A stretch of 64,000 nt of DNA, taken from the NCBI RefSeq assembly GCF_030013595.1, contig NZ_CP122768.1; one strand, written 5' to 3'. This document shows positions 11,073 to 19,360 of the stretch, one piece after another (position 1 is the first letter of the stretch; each line of letters starts with the position of its first letter). The stretch is from Escherichia coli (GTDB taxonomy: Bacteria > Pseudomonadota > Gammaproteobacteria > Enterobacterales > Enterobacteriaceae). A program made the translations under genes and the position numbers. The notes below the pieces were generated by a model that did no database searches, was not told the origin of the DNA, and saw nothing but the letters and a program-made list of their open reading frames with translations.

Positions 11073-11101
11073 TTTTTTAAGTGACTGATGAGAAAGGGTT
11101 T

Positions 11102-11839
11102 ATGAGTTTTCAATTTTGCAGGCGGAAGTTTTATTTCCTCCTGGCGCTGACCTTACCGGGCTACGCCGCCGTCCACCCCGTGCAACACAGCGCGCGGGAA
11201 CAAGTCAACGCCCAGGTACTGAATGCCGCGAGCCAGGAAATTGAATCGCTGGCGCAACAGCGGCGCTGGCATGACTATCGCTACACCTTTAAGGTCTATA
11301 TTCCCTCGCAGATTGCGACCGCCGCCCCCTGTGCGACTACACCCGGCGTCACGCTCACTTCGCCTGCGGAAATCACCCTCAACCGGATGAACTTCACCGT
11401 CAGTTGCCCGCAAAGCTGGCAGATGAACGTGGCGGTGCGCCCGGATGTTCTGGTGCCGGTGGTAATGGCGAAGTCACTGGTTGCCCGCGACACGCCGCTC
11501 ACGGCAAATGATGTGGAGTTGAAGCCCTACAACGTCAGCGCCCAGCGCCGCAATGTGTTGATGGATCCCGATGACGCGATTGGTTTCAGCAGTAAACACG
11601 CGCTGCAACCGGGCAGGCCCATCACCAAAGAAGAGCTGGTTTCGCCAGTGCTGGTCGAACGCGATCAGCCGGTGATGATTGTTTACCAGAGCGCGGGGAT
11701 CACCGCCTCGATGCCCGGCGTGGCGCTGAAAAATGGTCGCAAAGGCGAGATGGTGAAAGTGCGTAACGCCAGCAGCCAGCGGGTCATCAGCGCGATGGTG
11801 GCGGAAAGCGGCGTGGTAACAACGGTAAGCGCGGAGTAA
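11102..11839 (+). CDS. lfgA: Flagellar P-ring formation chaperone FlgA
   Basis: 245 aa with signal peptide, divergent from lfgB; ATG at 11102 preceded by agaaaggg. Confidence 0.8.
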   Translation: MSFQFCRRKFYFLLALTLPGYAAVHPVQHSAREQVNAQVLNAASQEIESLAQQRRWHDYRYTFKVYIPSQIATAAPCATTPGVTLTSPAEITLNRMNFTVSCPQSWQMNVAVRPDVLVPVVMAKSLVARDTPLTANDVELKPYNVSAQRRNVLMDPDDAIGFSSKHALQPGRPITKEELVSPVLVERDQPVMIVYQSAGITASMPGVALKNGRKGEMVKVRNASSQRVISAMVAESGVVTTVSAE

Positions 11840-12026
11840 TTTGCTGTAATACCGCGTAGCATATGTATGACTAGCTCCCAATATTCTGACTTTCTGACAA
11901 ATTTCATTGTGTATTTTGGATAATTATTGAGCACTCAATCACTACTGTTTAAATATCCAGATGATAACTATTTCATCTGGGTCAAATGAGTGATATTGTA
12001 TCACCAATAAGACCTACGGGGGTGCT

Positions 12027-13451
12027 ATGTCTGAATTTGAATTGCTCGTGAAAGATCTTCTTTTAAAATCAGAAGAAGACGAGAAAAAGCGACAAGAAAA
12101 AGATCGAGAATTAATTTCAAAGGTTCTTGAAATCTATGATCAAAAATATGTTGCAGAACTCCTACGAAAAGTAGGAAAAAATGAATGGAGCAGAGAAACA
12201 CTTAACCGTTGGATAAATGGTAAGTGTAACCCTAAACAATTAACTTCTGCTGAGGAAACTTTACTTCGAAAGATGCTTCCAGAACCTCCCGAACATCATC
12301 CTAACTATACATTTCGTTTTATTGATTTATTCGCAGGGATTGGTGGTATTCGTAAAGGCTTCGAAAATATTGGTGGGCAGTGTGTTTTTACTAGCGAATG
12401 GAATAAAGAAGCGGTAAGAACCTACAAAGCTAATTGGTTTAATGATGAACTAAATCATAAATTTAATCTTGATATACGAGAAGTCACTTTAAGTGATAGA
12501 GATGATGTTTCCGAAATGGAAGCCTATAATCATATAGACAAAAATATTCCAGATCATGATGTCCTTCTGGCCGGTTTTCCATGTCAGCCCTTTAGTCTGG
12601 CTGGGGTAAGCAAGAAAAATTCTCTGGGGCGTGCACATGGTTTTGAATGTGAGGCACAAGGAACACTATTTTTTGATGTCGCTCGAATTATTAAATCAAA
12701 AAAACCAGCTATTTTTGTGCTTGAGAATGTGAAGAACCTTAAAAGTCATGATAAAGGTAAGACTTTTAAAGTCATCATGGAAACACTCAATGAATTAGGG
12801 TATGAAGTCGCCGATGCTGGTGTGACTGGCTCAGATGATCCTAAAATTATAGATGGAAAACATTTTTTACCCCAACATCGTGAGCGTATAGTGTTGGTAG
12901 GATTTCGTAGGGATCTAAATATTCACAAGGATTTCACGTTACGAAATATTAACCGCTTTTACCCTCAAAACAGGCCAACATTTGGTGAATTATTAGATCA
13001 TGATGTTGACGACAAATATATTTTGACTCCAAGGTTATGGGAATATCTTTACAATTATGCAAAAAAACATGCAGCAAAAGGAAATGGATTTGGTTTTGGT
13101 TTAGTGGATCCTAAAAATCCAGATAGTATCGCACGAACGCTGTCTGCTCGTTACCATAAAGATGGCTCTGAAATACTGATCGATCGTGGCTGGGATAAGG
13201 CTGTCGGTGAAATCGATTTTAGTAATCCAGCGAATCAAGAGAATCGACCAAGAAGACTGACACCTCATGAATGTGCCAGGTTAATGGGTTTTGAAAAACC
13301 AGGGGGAAGACCTTTTAGAATACCTGTATCAGATACTCAAGCTTATAGACAATTTGGGAACTCAGTTGTTGTGCCAGTATTTGAAGCTGTAGCAAGATTA
13401 CTAGAACCGTACATACAAAAGGCTGTCAGCATGCAAGTTATTAACGATTAA
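12027..13451 (+). CDS. DNA (cytosine-5)-methyltransferase, Dcm / M.EcoRII-like
   Basis: 474 aa; C5-MTase motifs [40 protein letters not shown]; close to E. coli Dcm along its length; AT-rich codon usage unlike its neighbours. Confidence 0.9.
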
Positions 13452-13475
13452 TAATAATTAACTTTCACTATTGTG

Positions 13476-13497
13476 AGGCCTTTTTTATTAAAGGCCT
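13476..13497. terminator. Hairpin between the convergent methyltransferase and restriction enzyme genes
   Basis: aggccttt-tttatt-aaaggcct: 8 bp perfect stem in an AT-rich context. Confidence 0.5.
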
Positions 13498-13538
13498 CTA
13501 AATATATAATCATAAGTTATTATAAGTATACTTTTATA

Positions 13539-14744
13539 TTATATAAAATCTTCATACAGCGTTATTAACTGTGTGATAAAACCCTCTAACGTTAATAATC
13601 CATCCCTGATTTCCTCCGGATATTTTTTATGAAGAGGGGAAGGTACAACCAAGGTGACACCTTCAGCTCTCATTTCGTTAAATTGAGCAACTGAGACACC
13701 CTCTTGTAAGGTAAACAAATATATTTTGTTGATTTTATTTGCTTCATTGAGTGCCTGACGCCACCGATCCTTACATGTTGTTTTTACAGCAAGCATACGG
13801 AGTTTTTCTCTTGGAAAGTGATCATCATGGTAAGCTGCCGCTGATGGAAAAAGAAAATCGGGTTTCTTTTTTCCTTCAGTAATACATTGAGTAGCAAAAT
13901 GATGCAGTCCATGCTCAATAAAAATTTGCTCAAGATGTAGCTCCAGTGATTTCCCGGCTCGAGATTTTCTTCGATTACTAACAGAGTTAGCCATAGCTAT
14001 AAAATCATCTACAGAACCAAACCCTTGACGGATGATGTCCAGTACGTGAATTTCTTCAACCATTAGAAAGAGATCATATTCAATACGGCGGCGTTCTAAA
14101 AGTTGGTCATCTGGACTGGTTACGCCTGTTGGGTAATAACCCGCAGCATATTGAATAATCTCTAAGCCAGAAGGAAAGCTATGTTTCCAGCTTTCCGGAA
14201 TAACATATTCCTTTTGAGAGATTTTTGGCCTTGATGCGAGTACACCAAGTATTTCACTGGCAGGCCCAAACATTAAAGTTCCAGGAATGATCTCCCCAAT
14301 AGCTGATTCCAGTACATCCTCTTCTTCTGGGCTAACACAAACCCATACATCAACACTTTTGCTGTCTCTCCCTGGCTCATGTTCAAACGCAAGCACAGAC
14401 AAAGCACCTGTATTTTCCGGATCCTGTAGGGGACTGCCAGCCCCCCACCGAGTGATGCGTTTTTCATTTCTTGTTTGCCCGAAATACTTATTATTGTAGT
14501 AAATAGCGCGAACCTCACTGTCTACACATTCATGAGAGGAATAAGTTGCGCGCAATAAAACCGAAGGATTTTTTTCTGACGTATGATCTATAGATGGGAA
14601 AAGTTCAGCGACGATACCAGAAGGGATATATACCCCCACTTGATGCCCTCCTGTTGCACCAGTGTCGTTTGCTGAAAGACGTTTAATATAGAGATAGTTG
14701 TTACCACCGACCTTATCAAGCAGCCAATCTTGTAATCCTGACAT
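13539..14744 (-). CDS. Type II restriction endonuclease, EcoRII family (expected target CCWGG)
   Basis: 401 aa; N-terminal YIKRLSANDTGATGGHQVGVYIPS and the remainder match my recollection of EcoRII; convergent with the Dcm-like gene as in EcoRII systems; AAGGA ribosome-binding site upstream. Confidence 0.8.
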   Translation of the reverse strand: MSGLQDWLLDKVGGNNYLYIKRLSANDTGATGGHQVGVYIPSGIVAELFPSIDHTSEKNPSVLLRATYSSHECVDSEVRAIYYNNKYFGQTRNEKRITRWGAGSPLQDPENTGALSVLAFEHEPGRDSKSVDVWVCVSPEEEDVLESAIGEIIPGTLMFGPASEILGVLASRPKISQKEYVIPESWKHSFPSGLEIIQYAAGYYPTGVTSPDDQLLERRRIEYDLFLMVEEIHVLDIIRQGFGSVDDFIAMANSVSNRRKSRAGKSLELHLEQIFIEHGLHHFATQCITEGKKKPDFLFPSAAAYHDDHFPREKLRMLAVKTTCKDRWRQALNEANKINKIYLFTLQEGVSVAQFNEMRAEGVTLVVPSPLHKKYPEEIRDGLLTLEGFITQLITLYEDFI

Positions 14745-14797
14745 AAGACATCCTTATTTTTGCATAGTATCCGATTCAGATTTTTCCACATATCCAT

Positions 14798-14831
14798 CAG
14801 AACGACCAGAACGACCAGAACGACCAGAACC
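14798..14831. repeat. 9 bp tandem repeat (CAGAACGAC) x about 3.7
   Basis: cagaacgaccagaacgaccagaacgaccagaacc, 54-87 bp upstream of the restriction enzyme start codon. Confidence 0.9.
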
Positions 14832-14868
14832 AACATATCTGAACAAAAAGTAAATATGCGATAACGAT

Positions 14869-14896
14869 TAAAGTTTTGCCGCCTGTTAACCGCTTT
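14869..14896 (+). promoter_or_regulatory. Candidate sigma-28 (class 3) promoter for lfgMN
   Basis: Perfect -35 TAAAGTTT at 14869-14876; weak -10 (ACCGCTTT against GCCGATAA) after a 12 nt spacer; about 40 nt upstream of lfgM. Confidence 0.3.
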
Positions 14897-14934
14897 ACCG
14901 GAGTAACCCACCTAAATACCGAGACGAGGTTGCG

Positions 14935-15210
14935 ATGAAAATCACCCCGACTATGCCAGGCAATCGCCCGACAGTCACAACGGCAGGCTCCAGCCAGCCG
15001 CGCAAAGGCACGGCGACCACCACGACGCTAAGCGCCGACGACATTACCCAGGCGGGATTGCAGTCTGCCCAGCAAACACTGAACGACCAGCAAGAGAGCG
15101 ATATCGACAGCGATAAAGTGGCGCAAATGCAGGCGATGCTGGCCTCCGGCAGCCTGCAAGTGGACACCGAACAGTTAGCCAGCGACATGCTGAGTTTTTT
15201 CCAGAACTAA
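14935..15210 (+). CDS. lfgM: Anti-sigma-28 factor FlgM
   Basis: 91 aa, small acidic protein ending SDMLSFFQN; followed by the flgN homologue. Confidence 0.8.
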   Translation: MKITPTMPGNRPTVTTAGSSQPRKGTATTTTLSADDITQAGLQSAQQTLNDQQESDIDSDKVAQMQAMLASGSLQVDTEQLASDMLSFFQN

Positions 15211-15222
15211 GAGGCCGATGAA

Positions 15223-15651
15223 GTGAGTATCAGGTTACAACAGGTGAAGGCGTTGTTGCAGGGAATTCGTGACGATGACGCGCTGTATGATTCCCTGCGC
15301 GAACTTCTCCAGCGCCAGCGGATCTGCATGATTCGCCGCGCCAGCGAAGAGCTGCTGGCGGTAAACGAGGAGATAACCCATCACTATGAGCAGTTGCATG
15401 GGCATAGCCATCAGCGACACAGCCTGCTGAAAATGCTCGGTGTTAGCGTAAATCGTGACGGTCTGGCGCAGGTATTTGCCTGGCTTCCGGCGGTACAAAA
15501 AGCGGCAGCACAACAGTTGTGGCAACGCCTTGAGCAAAAAGCGGAACGCTGCAAAGCCTACAACGACAAAAACGGCGAGCAGTTGATTCGCCAGTATGAA
15601 TTTATTCAGTCTTTTTTAGGCAGCGAAGCGGATTTTCTGTACCAGGAATAA
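15223..15651 (+). CDS. lfgN: Flagellar export chaperone FlgN
   Basis: 142 aa helical protein; GTG start preceded by gagg. Confidence 0.75.
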   Translation: MSIRLQQVKALLQGIRDDDALYDSLRELLQRQRICMIRRASEELLAVNEEITHHYEQLHGHSHQRHSLLKMLGVSVNRDGLAQVFAWLPAVQKAAAQQLWQRLEQKAERCKAYNDKNGEQLIRQYEFIQSFLGSEADFLYQE

Positions 15652-15728
15652 CGACCATTCCTTCCCCCATCGCGGAAACGGATTTTCCGCCTGATTCACA
15701 ATCCTTTGTTTTTGATTATAAAAAATCA

Positions 15729-15745
15729 CGGCACGCTTATTGCAC
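15729..15745 (+). promoter_or_regulatory. Sigma-54 (-24/-12) promoter in front of the hypothetical gene and glycosyltransferase
   Basis: cGGCACG-CTTA-TTGCA matches TGGCACG-N4-TTGCA with exact spacing, 34 nt upstream of the ATG at 15779. Confidence 0.6.
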
Positions 15746-15778
15746 ATTCCGCAAAGTAATAAAGACTGGAAGCCACCT

Positions 15779-16609
15779 ATGAGTTTTATTGAATGTTACG
15801 AACCGGAATACGTGCGCAATTTTATGACGCAATATCCCGATTCGCCTTTGTACATCCGCAAGGTGTGGAAAAACGAGATTCGCCTGAGCCTGATGCTGAC
15901 AGAGCCAGAAAGTTGCGAAGCGGTGCTCAACGATGCCAGGGCCTTTGATTTACAGCTCACCTACCGCCCGGCGGAAGAAAATGCCGCAGAGCTTTCCGCG
16001 CGCGATGCGATAGTAAACCAGGTCATTTTGAGTACCCTCACGCTCCCCGATTTAACCCCAGAGCTTTCACTATATGCCATCGGGATTTTACTCTCCCGCG
16101 CCAGCAAAATGCCGGGCAGAGACGGAGATATTCTTGCCCGTTTGACGACGCTGCCGCAGGCGCTGGCCGATCATGCGAAAAAAGGCACGCTACAGGCACA
16201 GTTCGCCCAACTTCCGCCCGTGCCACAGCTGGCGCGTCACCTGGCCACGCTACTCGGGAGTTTTACGTTTGACTGGTCGATTTTGCCGGAAAGCCCGCGC
16301 AAAACTTCGCTGCCGTTGCAGATGCCTTTGCTGGCGCTACATGACGCCAACAGCGAAGCCCTGGTGCAACAGCAGCTTCAGGCTCAGTGGCAAACCACCT
16401 GGCAACAGCATTTTGCCACCGCGCCCTGGATGATGCGTAACTGGCTGATTTACCGCGTTTACCATGAGGTGATTGGACAGGCAGACGGAGCAGATTATTG
16501 CCCGCTGGTGTGCGATTTTTATCTTATCCGCACGTTAATCAGTTTTATGGACGCTGGATGGTTCTCCGCTGCGACAGGAGGATATTTTCGCCCTTTTTGC
16601 GGTGTTTGA
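15779..16609 (+). CDS. Hypothetical protein (Flag-2 accessory)
   Basis: 276 aa ORF from the ATG after the sigma-54 promoter; the 3' end may be frameshifted (see findings). Confidence 0.55.
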   Translation: MSFIECYEPEYVRNFMTQYPDSPLYIRKVWKNEIRLSLMLTEPESCEAVLNDARAFDLQLTYRPAEENAAELSARDAIVNQVILSTLTLPDLTPELSLYAIGILLSRASKMPGRDGDILARLTTLPQALADHAKKGTLQAQFAQLPPVPQLARHLATLLGSFTFDWSILPESPRKTSLPLQMPLLALHDANSEALVQQQLQAQWQTTWQQHFATAPWMMRNWLIYRVYHEVIGQADGADYCPLVCDFYLIRTLISFMDAGWFSAATGGYFRPFCGV

Positions 16610-16729
16610 ACGCTGGCGAGAGAGTGAAAATGCGCTGTTTATTCGCCAGCAAATTCAGTCGTTATGTGCGGCAGAGCCGCTGCTTTCAGCATTTTCGCTG
16701 CTGACGTGAGTCGCTCTGTGCGCGCTTTT

Positions 16730-16840
16730 CCCCTCACCCTAACCCTCTCCCCAAAGGGGCGAGGGAACCGATCGAGCACGGTGTTAAAATCGGCGCTGGT
16801 TTTCTCCCCTCTCCCTGTGGGAGAGGGTCGGGGTGAGGGC
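16730..16840. repeat. GC-rich palindromic intergenic repeat, composite copy (near-identical to 6460-6570)
   Basis: cccctcaccctaaccctctccccaaaggggcgagggaaccgatcgagcac ... ctccctgtgggagagggtcggggtgaggg. Confidence 0.85.
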
Positions 16841-16888
16841 ATCAGCACGCACATTCATCACATTCACCCCTTAACTCACCCAGACACC

Positions 16889-19360
16889 ATGCCAACACAA
16901 ACCATCATCAAAACACTCGCCACCCACCGCGAAAAACCGTTTGTCAGCGTCGTCACGCCAACCTGGAACCGTGGCGCATTCCTGCCGTACCTGCTTTATA
17001 TGTACCGCTATCAGGATTACCCGGCAGACCGCCGCGAACTCATCATCCTCGACGACTCGCCGCAAAGCCATCAACACATCATCGACCGCCTGACCAATGG
17101 CACACCGGAAGCCTTTAACATCCGCTATATTCATCACCCGGAAAAACTGCCACTGGGCAAAAAACGCAACATGCTCAACGAACTGGCGAGCGGCGAATAC
17201 ATCCTCTGCATGGACGATGACGACTACTACCCGGCAGATAAAATCTCCTGGACCATCGCCATGATGCAAAAACATAGGGCGCTCATCTCCGGCTCCGACC
17301 AGATCCCCATCTGGTACAGCCACATCAACCGCATTTTCAAAAGCCGCAGCTTTGGCCCGCATAACATCCTCAACGGCACCTTTTGCTATCACCGTAACTA
17401 CCTGAAAAAGCACCGTTACGACGACGATAGCAATTTAGGCGAAGAGAAAAGTTTCACCAACAATTTCAGCGTTAACCCGCTACAACTGCCCGGCGAGCGC
17501 ACGATTCTGTGTATCTCGCACAGCCACAACACCTTTGATAAAGACTTTATTCTCGGGGCCAGCACGCCTGTAAACGCGGCGCTTACGGATATCGTCCGCG
17601 ATCCGCTGCTCCGCAATGCTTATCTGAGTCTGCATAACGCCACTCATCACCAGGCGATCAACCATCAGGCGATCGATCAGATCGTTCTGCTGAATCTGGA
17701 TAAACGCCCGGATCGCTTACAACAGATCCGTGAAGAACTGGCATTGCTGCATATTCCACCTGAGAAGATCACCCGCCTTGCCGCCAGTGAAGATCAAAAC
17801 GGTCAACGGGGTCGCCGCCAGTCGCACTTGCAGGCGCTGCGCCTGGCGCAACAGCACGGCTGGCAAAACTATCTGCTGCTGGAAGATGACGCGGTTATTC
17901 TCAAGCAGGAGAAACATATTCAGGTGCTGAACACGCTGCTGGCGAGCCTGGCGAAAATTCCCTGGCAGGTGATGATCCTTGGCGGCGAAATTTCGCAAGG
18001 AACTATGCTAAAAAGTTTGCCGGGGCTGGTGCACGCGCGGGACTGCCGCAAAGTGTGCGCTTATCTGGTGAACAGCCGCTACTACCCGCAACTGGCGCAG
18101 CAGATGAGCAACGATGAGCACTCGCTGGAAGCCTGCTGGCAGCCGCTGCTACACGCCGACAAATGGCTGGCCTGTTACCCGAGCCTTTGTTACCAGCGAC
18201 CGGGCTTTAGCGATATCGAGAAAAAAGTCACCGACAACATTAGTCACTATTTCAATAAGTTACACGTAACCACCAAGCCATCCACGTTACCCATCGCCGA
18301 CACCATCGGCTTTTTTATGGAAACCTCATTCCACTACGCGCTGTATCGCCCAATCATCACCGCTCTACAGGCGCAGGGGGAGAGCTGCACGCTGGTGATC
18401 AACGACCGCGTGTTTAAACCGTTTCTGGATGAAATGCTGGAGACGCTAAAAAGCATCGACGACCCACAGCTTAAAGGTATGCGCTTGTCTGAGATGCAGG
18501 CACACGGCCAGCGGATGAAATGCCTGGTCAGCCCCTACCACACGCCCGCGCTCAATGGCCTGGCAGCGGTGAACGTTCGCGCCATGTATGGCTTAGCCAA
18601 AGAAACGTGGAACCACGCCGACTGGAACCGTTTTTATCAGCGCATTTTGTGTTACAGCCACTACAGCCAGCAGGCGCTGGCGCATTTCGGTAGCGCAAAA
18701 GTGGTCGGCAACCCACGCTTCGACGCCTGGCATAACGGCACGTTCGACCGCACTCTGCCGGAAAATATCCAACCCGATTCCTGTAAACCTACGGTGCTCT
18801 ACGCCCCTACGTTTGGCGCACTAAGCTCCCTGCCCCACTGGGCAGAAAAATTAGGCCGCTTAAGTGGCAATGTGAATCTGATTTGCAAACTGCACCACGG
18901 CACCTGCTCGCGCCCGGAAGAAACTGCATCGCTGGCACTGGCGCGCAGGCATTTAAAACGGCGCACCGACTCCGCCCGCCACACGCTGGCGCTGCTGGCA
19001 AAGGCCGATTACGTGCTGACCGATAACAGCGGCTTTATTTTCGATGCTATTCACGTTGATAAGCGGGTGATCCTGCTCGACTTTCCGGGCATGAGTGAAT
19101 TGCTCGACGGCGAGAAAAGCTACTCCACGCCGGAGAGCGCCGATCAGCAAATCCGCGAAATATTGCCGGTGGCTCATGATATGGCAGAGTTGCGTTACTT
19201 GTTGTCAGAGGCGTTTGACTGGGGGGCGGTGCAGACACGGCTTAAGGAGATTCGTCATCACTATTGCGATGCGTTTATGGATGGCAAGGCGGGAGAACGG
19301 GCGGCGATGGTGATTGTTGAGGCGCTGGCGGACAAGGAACCGTCAGGGATATGTCGATAA
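16889..19360 (+). CDS. Three-domain glycosyltransferase: GT2 + GT25-like + TagF-like CDP-glycerol glycerophosphotransferase
   Basis: 823 aa from the ATG at 16889 (the longer ORF from 16664 runs through the repeat). GT2: VSVVTPTWNRG, ILDDS, CMDDDD. GT25-like: IVLLNLDKRPDR, LLLEDD. TagF-like: GNPRFD, VLYAPTFG, LTDNSGFIFD. Confidence 0.85.
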   Translation: MPTQTIIKTLATHREKPFVSVVTPTWNRGAFLPYLLYMYRYQDYPADRRELIILDDSPQSHQHIIDRLTNGTPEAFNIRYIHHPEKLPLGKKRNMLNELASGEYILCMDDDDYYPADKISWTIAMMQKHRALISGSDQIPIWYSHINRIFKSRSFGPHNILNGTFCYHRNYLKKHRYDDDSNLGEEKSFTNNFSVNPLQLPGERTILCISHSHNTFDKDFILGASTPVNAALTDIVRDPLLRNAYLSLHNATHHQAINHQAIDQIVLLNLDKRPDRLQQIREELALLHIPPEKITRLAASEDQNGQRGRRQSHLQALRLAQQHGWQNYLLLEDDAVILKQEKHIQVLNTLLASLAKIPWQVMILGGEISQGTMLKSLPGLVHARDCRKVCAYLVNSRYYPQLAQQMSNDEHSLEACWQPLLHADKWLACYPSLCYQRPGFSDIEKKVTDNISHYFNKLHVTTKPSTLPIADTIGFFMETSFHYALYRPIITALQAQGESCTLVINDRVFKPFLDEMLETLKSIDDPQLKGMRLSEMQAHGQRMKCLVSPYHTPALNGLAAVNVRAMYGLAKETWNHADWNRFYQRILCYSHYSQQALAHFGSAKVVGNPRFDAWHNGTFDRTLPENIQPDSCKPTVLYAPTFGALSSLPHWAEKLGRLSGNVNLICKLHHGTCSRPEETASLALARRHLKRRTDSARHTLALLAKADYVLTDNSGFIFDAIHVDKRVILLDFPGMSELLDGEKSYSTPESADQQIREILPVAHDMAELRYLLSEAFDWGAVQTRLKEIRHHYCDAFMDGKAGERAAMVIVEALADKEPSGICR

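Follow-up and report, generated by a model that had tools for sequence, protein, structure and literature searches.

The DNA analyzed in this study, a stretch of 64,000 nucleotides of an Escherichia coli genome (hereafter the window), comprises the Flag-2 (lateral flagella) locus of this species. Between lfgA (11081-11839) and lfgM, which is followed by lfgN on the + strand, a restriction-modification (R-M) cassette is inserted. Its GC content amounts to 38% compared with 54-57% of the flanks, and it is lacking at the empty site of strain ATCC 8739, where lfgA and lfgM are separated by a spacer of 80 bp. The predicted endonuclease (R) contains the domains EcoRII-N (PF09217, E 3e-60) and EcoRII-C (PF09019, E 4e-70) and can be aligned with the EcoRII structure 1NA6 along its entire length (E 4e-188), in agreement with a preliminary description of the region, in which the R gene had been called EcoRII-like. 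The methyltransferase (M) exhibits the domains DNA_meth_N (PF18284) and DNA_methylase (PF00145). Its domains and the order of its genes place the cassette in the EcoRII family, and the ~69% identity of R to R.EcoRII would point to a CCWGG specificity. While the lfgM/N part was matched in 1278 out of 5426 complete E. coli genomes, the R-M cassette was present in only 28 of them. Between E. coli lineages the cassette is diverged by up to ~4% and is therefore old or has been acquired repeatedly. An EcoRII/Dcm cargo (401-aa EcoRII, 474-aa Dcm) has been reported for 21 Escherichia Flag-2 loci, as stated in the account of the cargo genes by De Maayer et al. 2020 (PMC6993521); the gene-level content is already published. 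The imperfect 10-11-bp direct repeat flanking the cassette (AGTAATTTGC / AGTAAATATGC) resembles a single copy at the empty site and may be a diverged target duplication or a microhomology used at insertion. The coordinates of the features are compiled in the table.

Table. Features of the R-M cassette and its surroundings in the window; promoter elements are predicted
Feature	Position	Strand	Basis
Left copy of the imperfect direct repeat, AGTAATTTGC, includes the lfgA stop codon	11835..11844	+	empty-site comparison
Inserted R-M cassette	11845..14859	.	comparison with the empty site of ATCC 8739, GC content
M, C5-cytosine methyltransferase gene, 474 aa, convergent with R	12027..13451	+	domains
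R, EcoRII-type restriction endonuclease gene, 401 aa, intact	13539..14744	-	domains, 1NA6 match
Promoter-proximal block from the array to the R start codon, includes Shine-Dalgarno sequence AAGGA	14745..14797	-	invariant in 13/13 haplotypes
Predicted extended -10, TGTGG-AAAAAT (TGTGGAAAAAT)	14780..14790	-	best candidate in every allele, score 7.3
9-bp tandem array, (CAGAACGAC)3 + CAGAAC	14798..14830	.	Tandem Repeats Finder, sequence, alleles 1.7/2.7/3.7/4.7
Predicted -35 hexamer TGGTCG, 17-bp spacer, inside the promoter-proximal repeat unit	14803..14808	-	in all alleles
A/T-rich distal upstream segment, in R orientation GCATATTTACTTTTTGTTCAGATATGTTG	14831..14859	-	sequence; placement inferred from promoter scan
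Right copy of the imperfect direct repeat, AGTAAATATGC, = right junction	14849..14859	+	alignment with empty site L006
Sigma-28-type lfgM promoter-like site, TAAAGTTT (8/8), N12, ACCGCTTT (4/8)	14869..14896	+	inferred
lfgM, anti-sigma-28 factor of Flag-2 (FlgM family), divergent from R	14935..15210	+	

Upstream of R, the cassette contains a 9-bp tandem array, which in the window is present in its 3.7-copy form. Together with its flanks it reads CAT-CAGAACGAC-CAGAACGAC-CAGAACGAC-CAGAAC-CAACAT, corresponding to GTTCTG(GTCGTTCTG)3 on the strand of the R gene. Tandem Repeats Finder reported the array with period 9, 3.7 copies, 100% matches, a score of 66 and the consensus CAGAACGAC, and it was both the top-scoring and the sole perfect tandem repeat of the 64-kb window. 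Four occurrences of the 9-mer were counted in the window, compared with 0.43 expected, and a count of four or more was not reached in any of 100 shuffles; for the run of 24 bases matching at lag 9, the chance probability is ~4^-24 per position. Thus, the perfect repeat of about 3.7 units noted upstream of the R gene was confirmed, as was its location between R and the divergent lfgM on the + strand. Its distance of 54 bp to the ATG of R (14744, minus strand) had also been given correctly, while the end had been placed at 14831. Base 14831 does not fit the period, and the true end is therefore at 14830. The array thus covers 54-86 bp upstream of the ATG, and it is separated from the right junction by 19-29 bp of cassette DNA.

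On either side of the array lies a copy of a 7-bp direct repeat (ACATATC, 14788-14794 and 14833-14839), an arrangement that could be due to chance. Two small open reading frames run over the array, one on the + strand (51 aa with ERP repeats) and one on the minus strand (with LVV repeats). Both are devoid of a ribosome-binding site, overlap R out of frame or antisense and showed no conservation in Klebsiella spallanzanii; they were discarded as spurious.

Comparison across related isolates disclosed four alleles of the tract with 1.7, 2.7, 3.7 and 4.7 copies, which differ by whole units and have identical flanks. The alleles are those of the places listed individually in look-ups that collapsed similar places, about 20 of which belong to the expanded clade. 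At least 39 other cassette-bearing E. coli contexts belonging to at least five diverged lineages contain 1.7 copies (including L001-L005, L008, L009, L011, L012-L015, L044, L046-L052, L054-L056). This allele was found in five complete genomes standing for groups that are up to ~5% diverged in this region, in the further assemblies L008, L009, L011, L050-L052 and L056, and in four metagenome contigs, the only ones detected by a metagenome scan for the tract (4/4 with 1.7 copies). Likewise, a 121-nt query with 1.7 copies matched all 28 complete cassette-bearing genomes over exactly 121 nt and in one piece. By look-ups with the exact R protein, which is indexed in 107 blocks, 2.7 copies were identified in L010 and L045, and 3.7 copies in L007/L043 in addition to the window. 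Look-ups with a clade-specific LfgF variant, indexed in 30 blocks, yielded another genome with 3.7 copies (L059) and the one with 4.7 copies (L058). R and M are intact in all alleles.

All alleles with more than 1.7 copies fall into one near-clonal subclade, in which they form a nested series consisting of gains only. In a 21-kb alignment, the genomes with 2.7 and 3.7 copies have approximately nine SNPs in common compared with their 1.7-copy relatives, and those with 3.7 copies have one further SNP and an indel in a REP element in common. L043 is distinct from the window, as within 21 kb there are one SNP and one indel between them and its contig is too short to comprise the window. The 4.7-copy genome does not differ from the window by any SNP over ~9.4 kb. 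The array is a lineage-specific VNTR that arose by slipped-strand expansion, and its simplest history would comprise three successive +9 events in a single near-clonal subclade. The change of copy number by slippage anticipated in the preliminary description is thus corroborated; its variability holds true for this one subclade, but not for the other lineages, which all have 1.7 copies. From two tract changes versus about eight SNPs in 21 kb, we roughly infer a mutation rate of the tract several thousand times the substitution rate per base, perhaps ~1e-6 per generation, which is well below that of classical contingency loci.

All cassettes examined carry CAGAAC-N3-CAGAAC, i.e., two hexamers 9 bp apart that are usable as a start for slippage. 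By chance alone, about 15 matches of 6 bp at a fixed lag are to be expected in 64 kb, and the ancestral state with 1.7 copies is nothing but a fortuitous direct repeat of 6 bp. The remaining indels that distinguish these genomes reside in REP elements or a homopolymer, where slippage is usual. REP (BIME-type) elements at ~7433 and ~9454, in the lfgF-lfgG and lfgD-lfgE spacers, exhibit indels of 2-4 bp among near-identical genomes, one of which marks the 3.7-copy clade. At 16806, the window has one extra C in a GC-rich palindromic repeat (..TTTTCTCCCCTCTCCCTGTGGGAGAGGG..) compared with four near-identical genomes; inside this repeat begins an open reading frame of 898 aa (16664-19360), a glycosyltransferase annotated elsewhere with 821-847 aa. 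The FliB-like lysine-N-methylase gene located after lfgN (15740-16709) appears to be frameshifted in this clade. Its reading frame in the window comprises 289 aa and ends at 16609, compared with 309-310 aa in other lineages, and in the near-identical genome L001 the gene is annotated as a frameshifted pseudogene. In the 4.7-copy genome L058, mntR, mntS and sulfatase genes (12093-16738) directly follow lfgK, where the window and L057 contain a flagellin-like gene and further Flag-2 genes, a structural difference in Flag-2 between otherwise identical strains.

To what extent the DNA around the array is conserved was deduced from 13 haplotypes. The cassette DNA upstream of R (14745-14848, minus extra units) did not contain a single segregating site at 86 positions, compared with 41 out of 402 (~10%) at third codon positions of R (Fisher p = 4e-4). 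Segregating sites were also present in the M-R spacer (7/87), upstream of M (12/182) and in the native region upstream of lfgM (6/75); the first and last of these combined (13/162) differed from the R upstream region with p = 0.005. Two rarer lineages possess one substitution each in the R upstream region. The depletion of segregating sites suggests that the region is functionally constrained. A longer segment of 160 bp (14698-14857), composed of the first 47 nt of R and the upstream cassette DNA, was likewise free of substitutions in the 13 haplotypes, which differ at ~10% of synonymous sites (p = 4e-4).

A consensus promoter and terminator scan of positions 14600-15000 did not reveal a sigma-70 site at threshold. 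The candidate R promoter listed in the table emerged from our own position-weight scan, a rough one built on hexamer frequencies, the scores of which are indicative only. As such a score is expected about 0.5 times by chance in a stretch of this length, the model is founded mainly on sequence conservation in one other species and on agreement of position: in five EcoRII-type systems, the predicted -10 is found at a distance of 36-46 nt from the ATG. It was the top-scoring candidate in those of IncN, the K. pneumoniae plasmid and K. grimontii, while in K. spallanzanii the conserved AAAAAT ranked third. The block TGTGGAAAAATC (12 nt) is the sole similarity between the R upstream regions of the window and of K. 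spallanzanii, the closest homologue outside E. coli (78% aa identity), in which the array region is absent and the rest unrelated. The R upstream regions of the IncN, Yokenella and K. pneumoniae plasmids and of K. grimontii showed neither alignable similarity nor a repeat, and a literature search did not find a published mapping of the ecoRIIR promoter.

Because the candidate -35 lies inside the promoter-proximal unit, the core elements are the same in every allele. Promoters spanning the array, in which the copy number would alter the spacing of -35 and -10, were also considered and rejected, as no such candidate exceeded the background in any allele. The preliminary description had brought the array into connection with restriction enzyme promoters; it is located at or just upstream of the -35 of the best candidate, which is itself a prediction. 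Overlapping the predicted -10, the sequence TTTTCCACA (14782-14790, + strand) fits the relaxed DnaA-box consensus TTWTNCACA; it coincides with the conserved TGTGGAAAAATC block and may simply represent the extended -10 element. A perfect 7-bp inverted repeat (TTCAGAT/ATCTGAA, 14775-14781 and 14837-14843) brackets the predicted promoter, possibly by chance. On the other side of the junction, the lfgM promoter-like site is situated in native DNA and starts 9 bp outside the cassette; the sigma-28 consensus is TAAAGTTT-N11-GCCGATAA. By insertion of the cassette the two predicted promoters, those of R and lfgM, were placed ~110 bp apart.

The tract was also evaluated as an operator of the methyltransferase and dismissed, as nothing corresponding to the block conserved upstream of M (CCAGAT..ATCTGG) is present upstream of R. 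According to the pertinent section of a review (PMC12707154), M.EcoRII represses its own gene only and leaves the R gene unaffected, and the tract is therefore unlikely to be a methyltransferase operator. The block itself (CTGTTTAAAT..CCAGAT-N..-ATCTGGGTCAAATGAGTGATA..TATCAC, 11945-12015) is conserved in the IncN, Yokenella, K. spallanzanii and K. pneumoniae plasmid systems and contains a perfect 8-bp inverted repeat (CCAGATGA/TCATCTGG, 11957-11980); it probably constitutes the M promoter and the operator for autoregulation. Upstream of M, TTCTGAC occurs twice, 8 bp apart (11884-11898), and resembles the GTTCTG core of the 9-bp unit. This pair is not conserved in other EcoRII-type systems and was not retained as a related operator.

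We give roughly an even chance to the interpretation that the tract is a slippage VNTR which borders the R promoter on its upstream side and, if it has any effect, acts as a quantitative modifier of R transcription. The starting point would be CAGAACGACCAGAAC, present in all E. coli Flag-2 EcoRII-type cassettes with its two CAGAAC hexamers 9 bp apart. Misalignment between the hexamers would have added one 9-bp unit in one subclade, giving 2.7 copies, and the longer tract would then have gained more units, resulting in the 3.7 copies of the window and the 4.7 copies of another isolate. According to the candidate promoter model, all alleles would keep the same -10, spacer and -35, and each unit would contribute 9 bp of 56%-GC DNA from about -45 outward. 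The added units would shift the A/T-rich segment GCATATTTACTTTTTGTTCAGATATGTTG, along with the back-to-back lfgM promoter, by 9, 18 or 27 bp, and a modest drop in R transcription might ensue through the loss of upstream A/T-rich contacts. The likely effect predicted by this model is a modest change in R transcription, probably downward, or none, and the tract does not look like an on/off switch.

As the core promoter elements are unchanged, the expansion could also be neutral. A VNTR that originated by slippage and does not measurably change the expression of R or lfgM with its copy number, so that it would be a mere lineage marker, has a chance we put somewhat short of even, and such a neutral polymorphism is almost as likely as a modest effect. 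Besides the identity of the predicted -10, spacer and -35 in all alleles, the restriction of the expansion to a single clone, the further slippage indels that build up in the same genomes and the intactness of R and M in all alleles are in line with neutrality. It is opposed by the significant depletion of substitutions in the surrounding 86 bp, according to which the upstream DNA appears to matter, and by the fact that the sequence at -45 to -60 commonly affects the strength of E. coli promoters.

One could go further than a modest modifier and interpret the series of gains as the result of selection, the VNTR acting as a graded 'rheostat' that retunes R, probably downward, or easing the crowding of the R and lfgM promoters. 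We regard this as unlikely; three gains and zero losses are too few events to demonstrate selection. To our knowledge, retuning of Type II R-M systems by a VNTR has not been described in E. coli.

That the tract is a contingency locus, i.e., a hypermutable sequence by which restriction would be reversibly switched between on and off in the manner of phase-variable R-M systems, is very improbable. There is indeed a tandem repeat in the predicted promoter region of an R-M gene, overlapping the predicted -35 and the upstream zone of the candidate promoter, and four alleles exist among nearly identical genomes. However, with 2-5 units of 9 bp the tract is short, 1.7 copies are found in each of the 39 or more contexts representing five or more diverged lineages, and the alleles are stable across isolates that are several SNPs per 21 kb apart. 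A high reversible mutation rate in many lineages was not observed in the assemblies compared; the variation is confined to one near-clonal subclade and is therefore unlike that of a fast phase-variation tract, with gains only and no reversion seen. Furthermore, there is no candidate promoter whose -35/-10 spacing is altered by the tract, and the inferred rate near 1e-6 per generation lies far below that of classical loci.

We attach equally little credence to an element acting at the RNA level, in which the tract would be part of a long 5' UTR of R or of a + strand transcript toward lfgM and would influence translation or stability. If transcription started upstream of the array, the predicted accessibility of the Shine-Dalgarno sequence and AUG would fall from 0.46 (1.7 copies) to 0.36 (3.7 copies) and 0.24 (6.7 copies), a mild drop in a hypothetical leader, and a weak promoter-like site exists on the + strand (14730-14760, score 7.5, 19-bp spacer). 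Against this, there is no acceptable R-strand promoter upstream of the array, an Rfam search of positions 14300-15300 gave no family match but only a chance sub-threshold hit to a snoRNA, and the array region is missing from the K. spallanzanii homologue.

The proposal of the preliminary description that the array could be a scar at the cassette boundary, to which we add a target-site duplication such as the 9 bp left by an IS element, is scarcely credible: although the array is near the right end of the cassette and 9 bp is a common target-duplication length of IS elements, it ends 19-29 bp inside the junction and is therefore not the junction itself, the junction possesses the different imperfect direct repeat AGTAATTTGC / AGTAAATATGC, same-site cassettes with identical junctions contain 1.7 to 4.7 units, and repeated insertion and excision of an IS element in exactly the same register is implausible.

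If the copy number tunes R, E. coli would offer a simple, naturally occurring case in which a promoter VNTR adjusts the toxin half of a Type II R-M system, and this would bear on the domestication of selfish R-M cassettes and on strain differences in the uptake of phages and plasmids. If it is neutral, it would provide a marker of fine resolution (1.7 to 4.7 units) for a single clone with the Flag-2 EcoRII cassette, and at the same time illustrate how a growing array is seeded by a chance direct repeat of 6 bp. The most notable feature is the nested, gains-only series inside the otherwise invariant and putatively regulatory region of a restriction endonuclease gene. We know of no case in which E. 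coli is the host, or a Type II restriction endonuclease the target, of a promoter-VNTR mechanism.

Among the known systems, the EcoRII/Dcm cargo of Flag-2 loci (PMC6993521) is the same cassette; in its account of the cargo that article describes the genes only and makes no mention of an upstream repeat or polymorphism. With EcoRII of the IncN plasmid, the cassette shares the two domains of R, the N-terminal domain of M, the convergent gene order and the conserved block CTGTTTAAAT..CCAGAT..ATCTGGGTCAAATGAGTGATA upstream of M, the gene whose autoregulation is attributed to Som & Friedman 1994, as cited in the part of PMC12707154 devoted to M.EcoRII. It differs from the plasmid system by an R that is ~69% identical and by its chromosomal site in Flag-2, and the region upstream of R is not homologous and free of repeats in the plasmid. 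Phase-variable R-M systems or 'phasevarions' (Type I/III mod or hsd genes with simple-sequence repeats; reviewed in PMC12707154 and PMC3874152) resemble the locus in that a repeat tract is tied to an R-M gene and changed by slipped-strand mispairing. Their tracts are mostly homopolymers or units of 2-5 nt in coding regions, which allow fast and reversible switching, whereas the 9-bp unit reported here is situated outside the open reading frame of a Type II enzyme and does not vary in most lineages. Graded expression has been ascribed to the 7-bp repeats upstream of hmw1A of Haemophilus influenzae and to promoter VNTRs of Mycobacterium tuberculosis, as set out in the relevant portions of PMC8262952 and PMC12817950, respectively. 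Compared with the tracts depicted there, the one in the window and its relatives is much shorter (2-5 units), varies in one clone only and has undergone nothing but gains. As in those systems, short units are arranged head-to-tail upstream of the start codon and close relatives differ by whole units, and the effect, here an expectation only, would be quantitative and not a frameshift.
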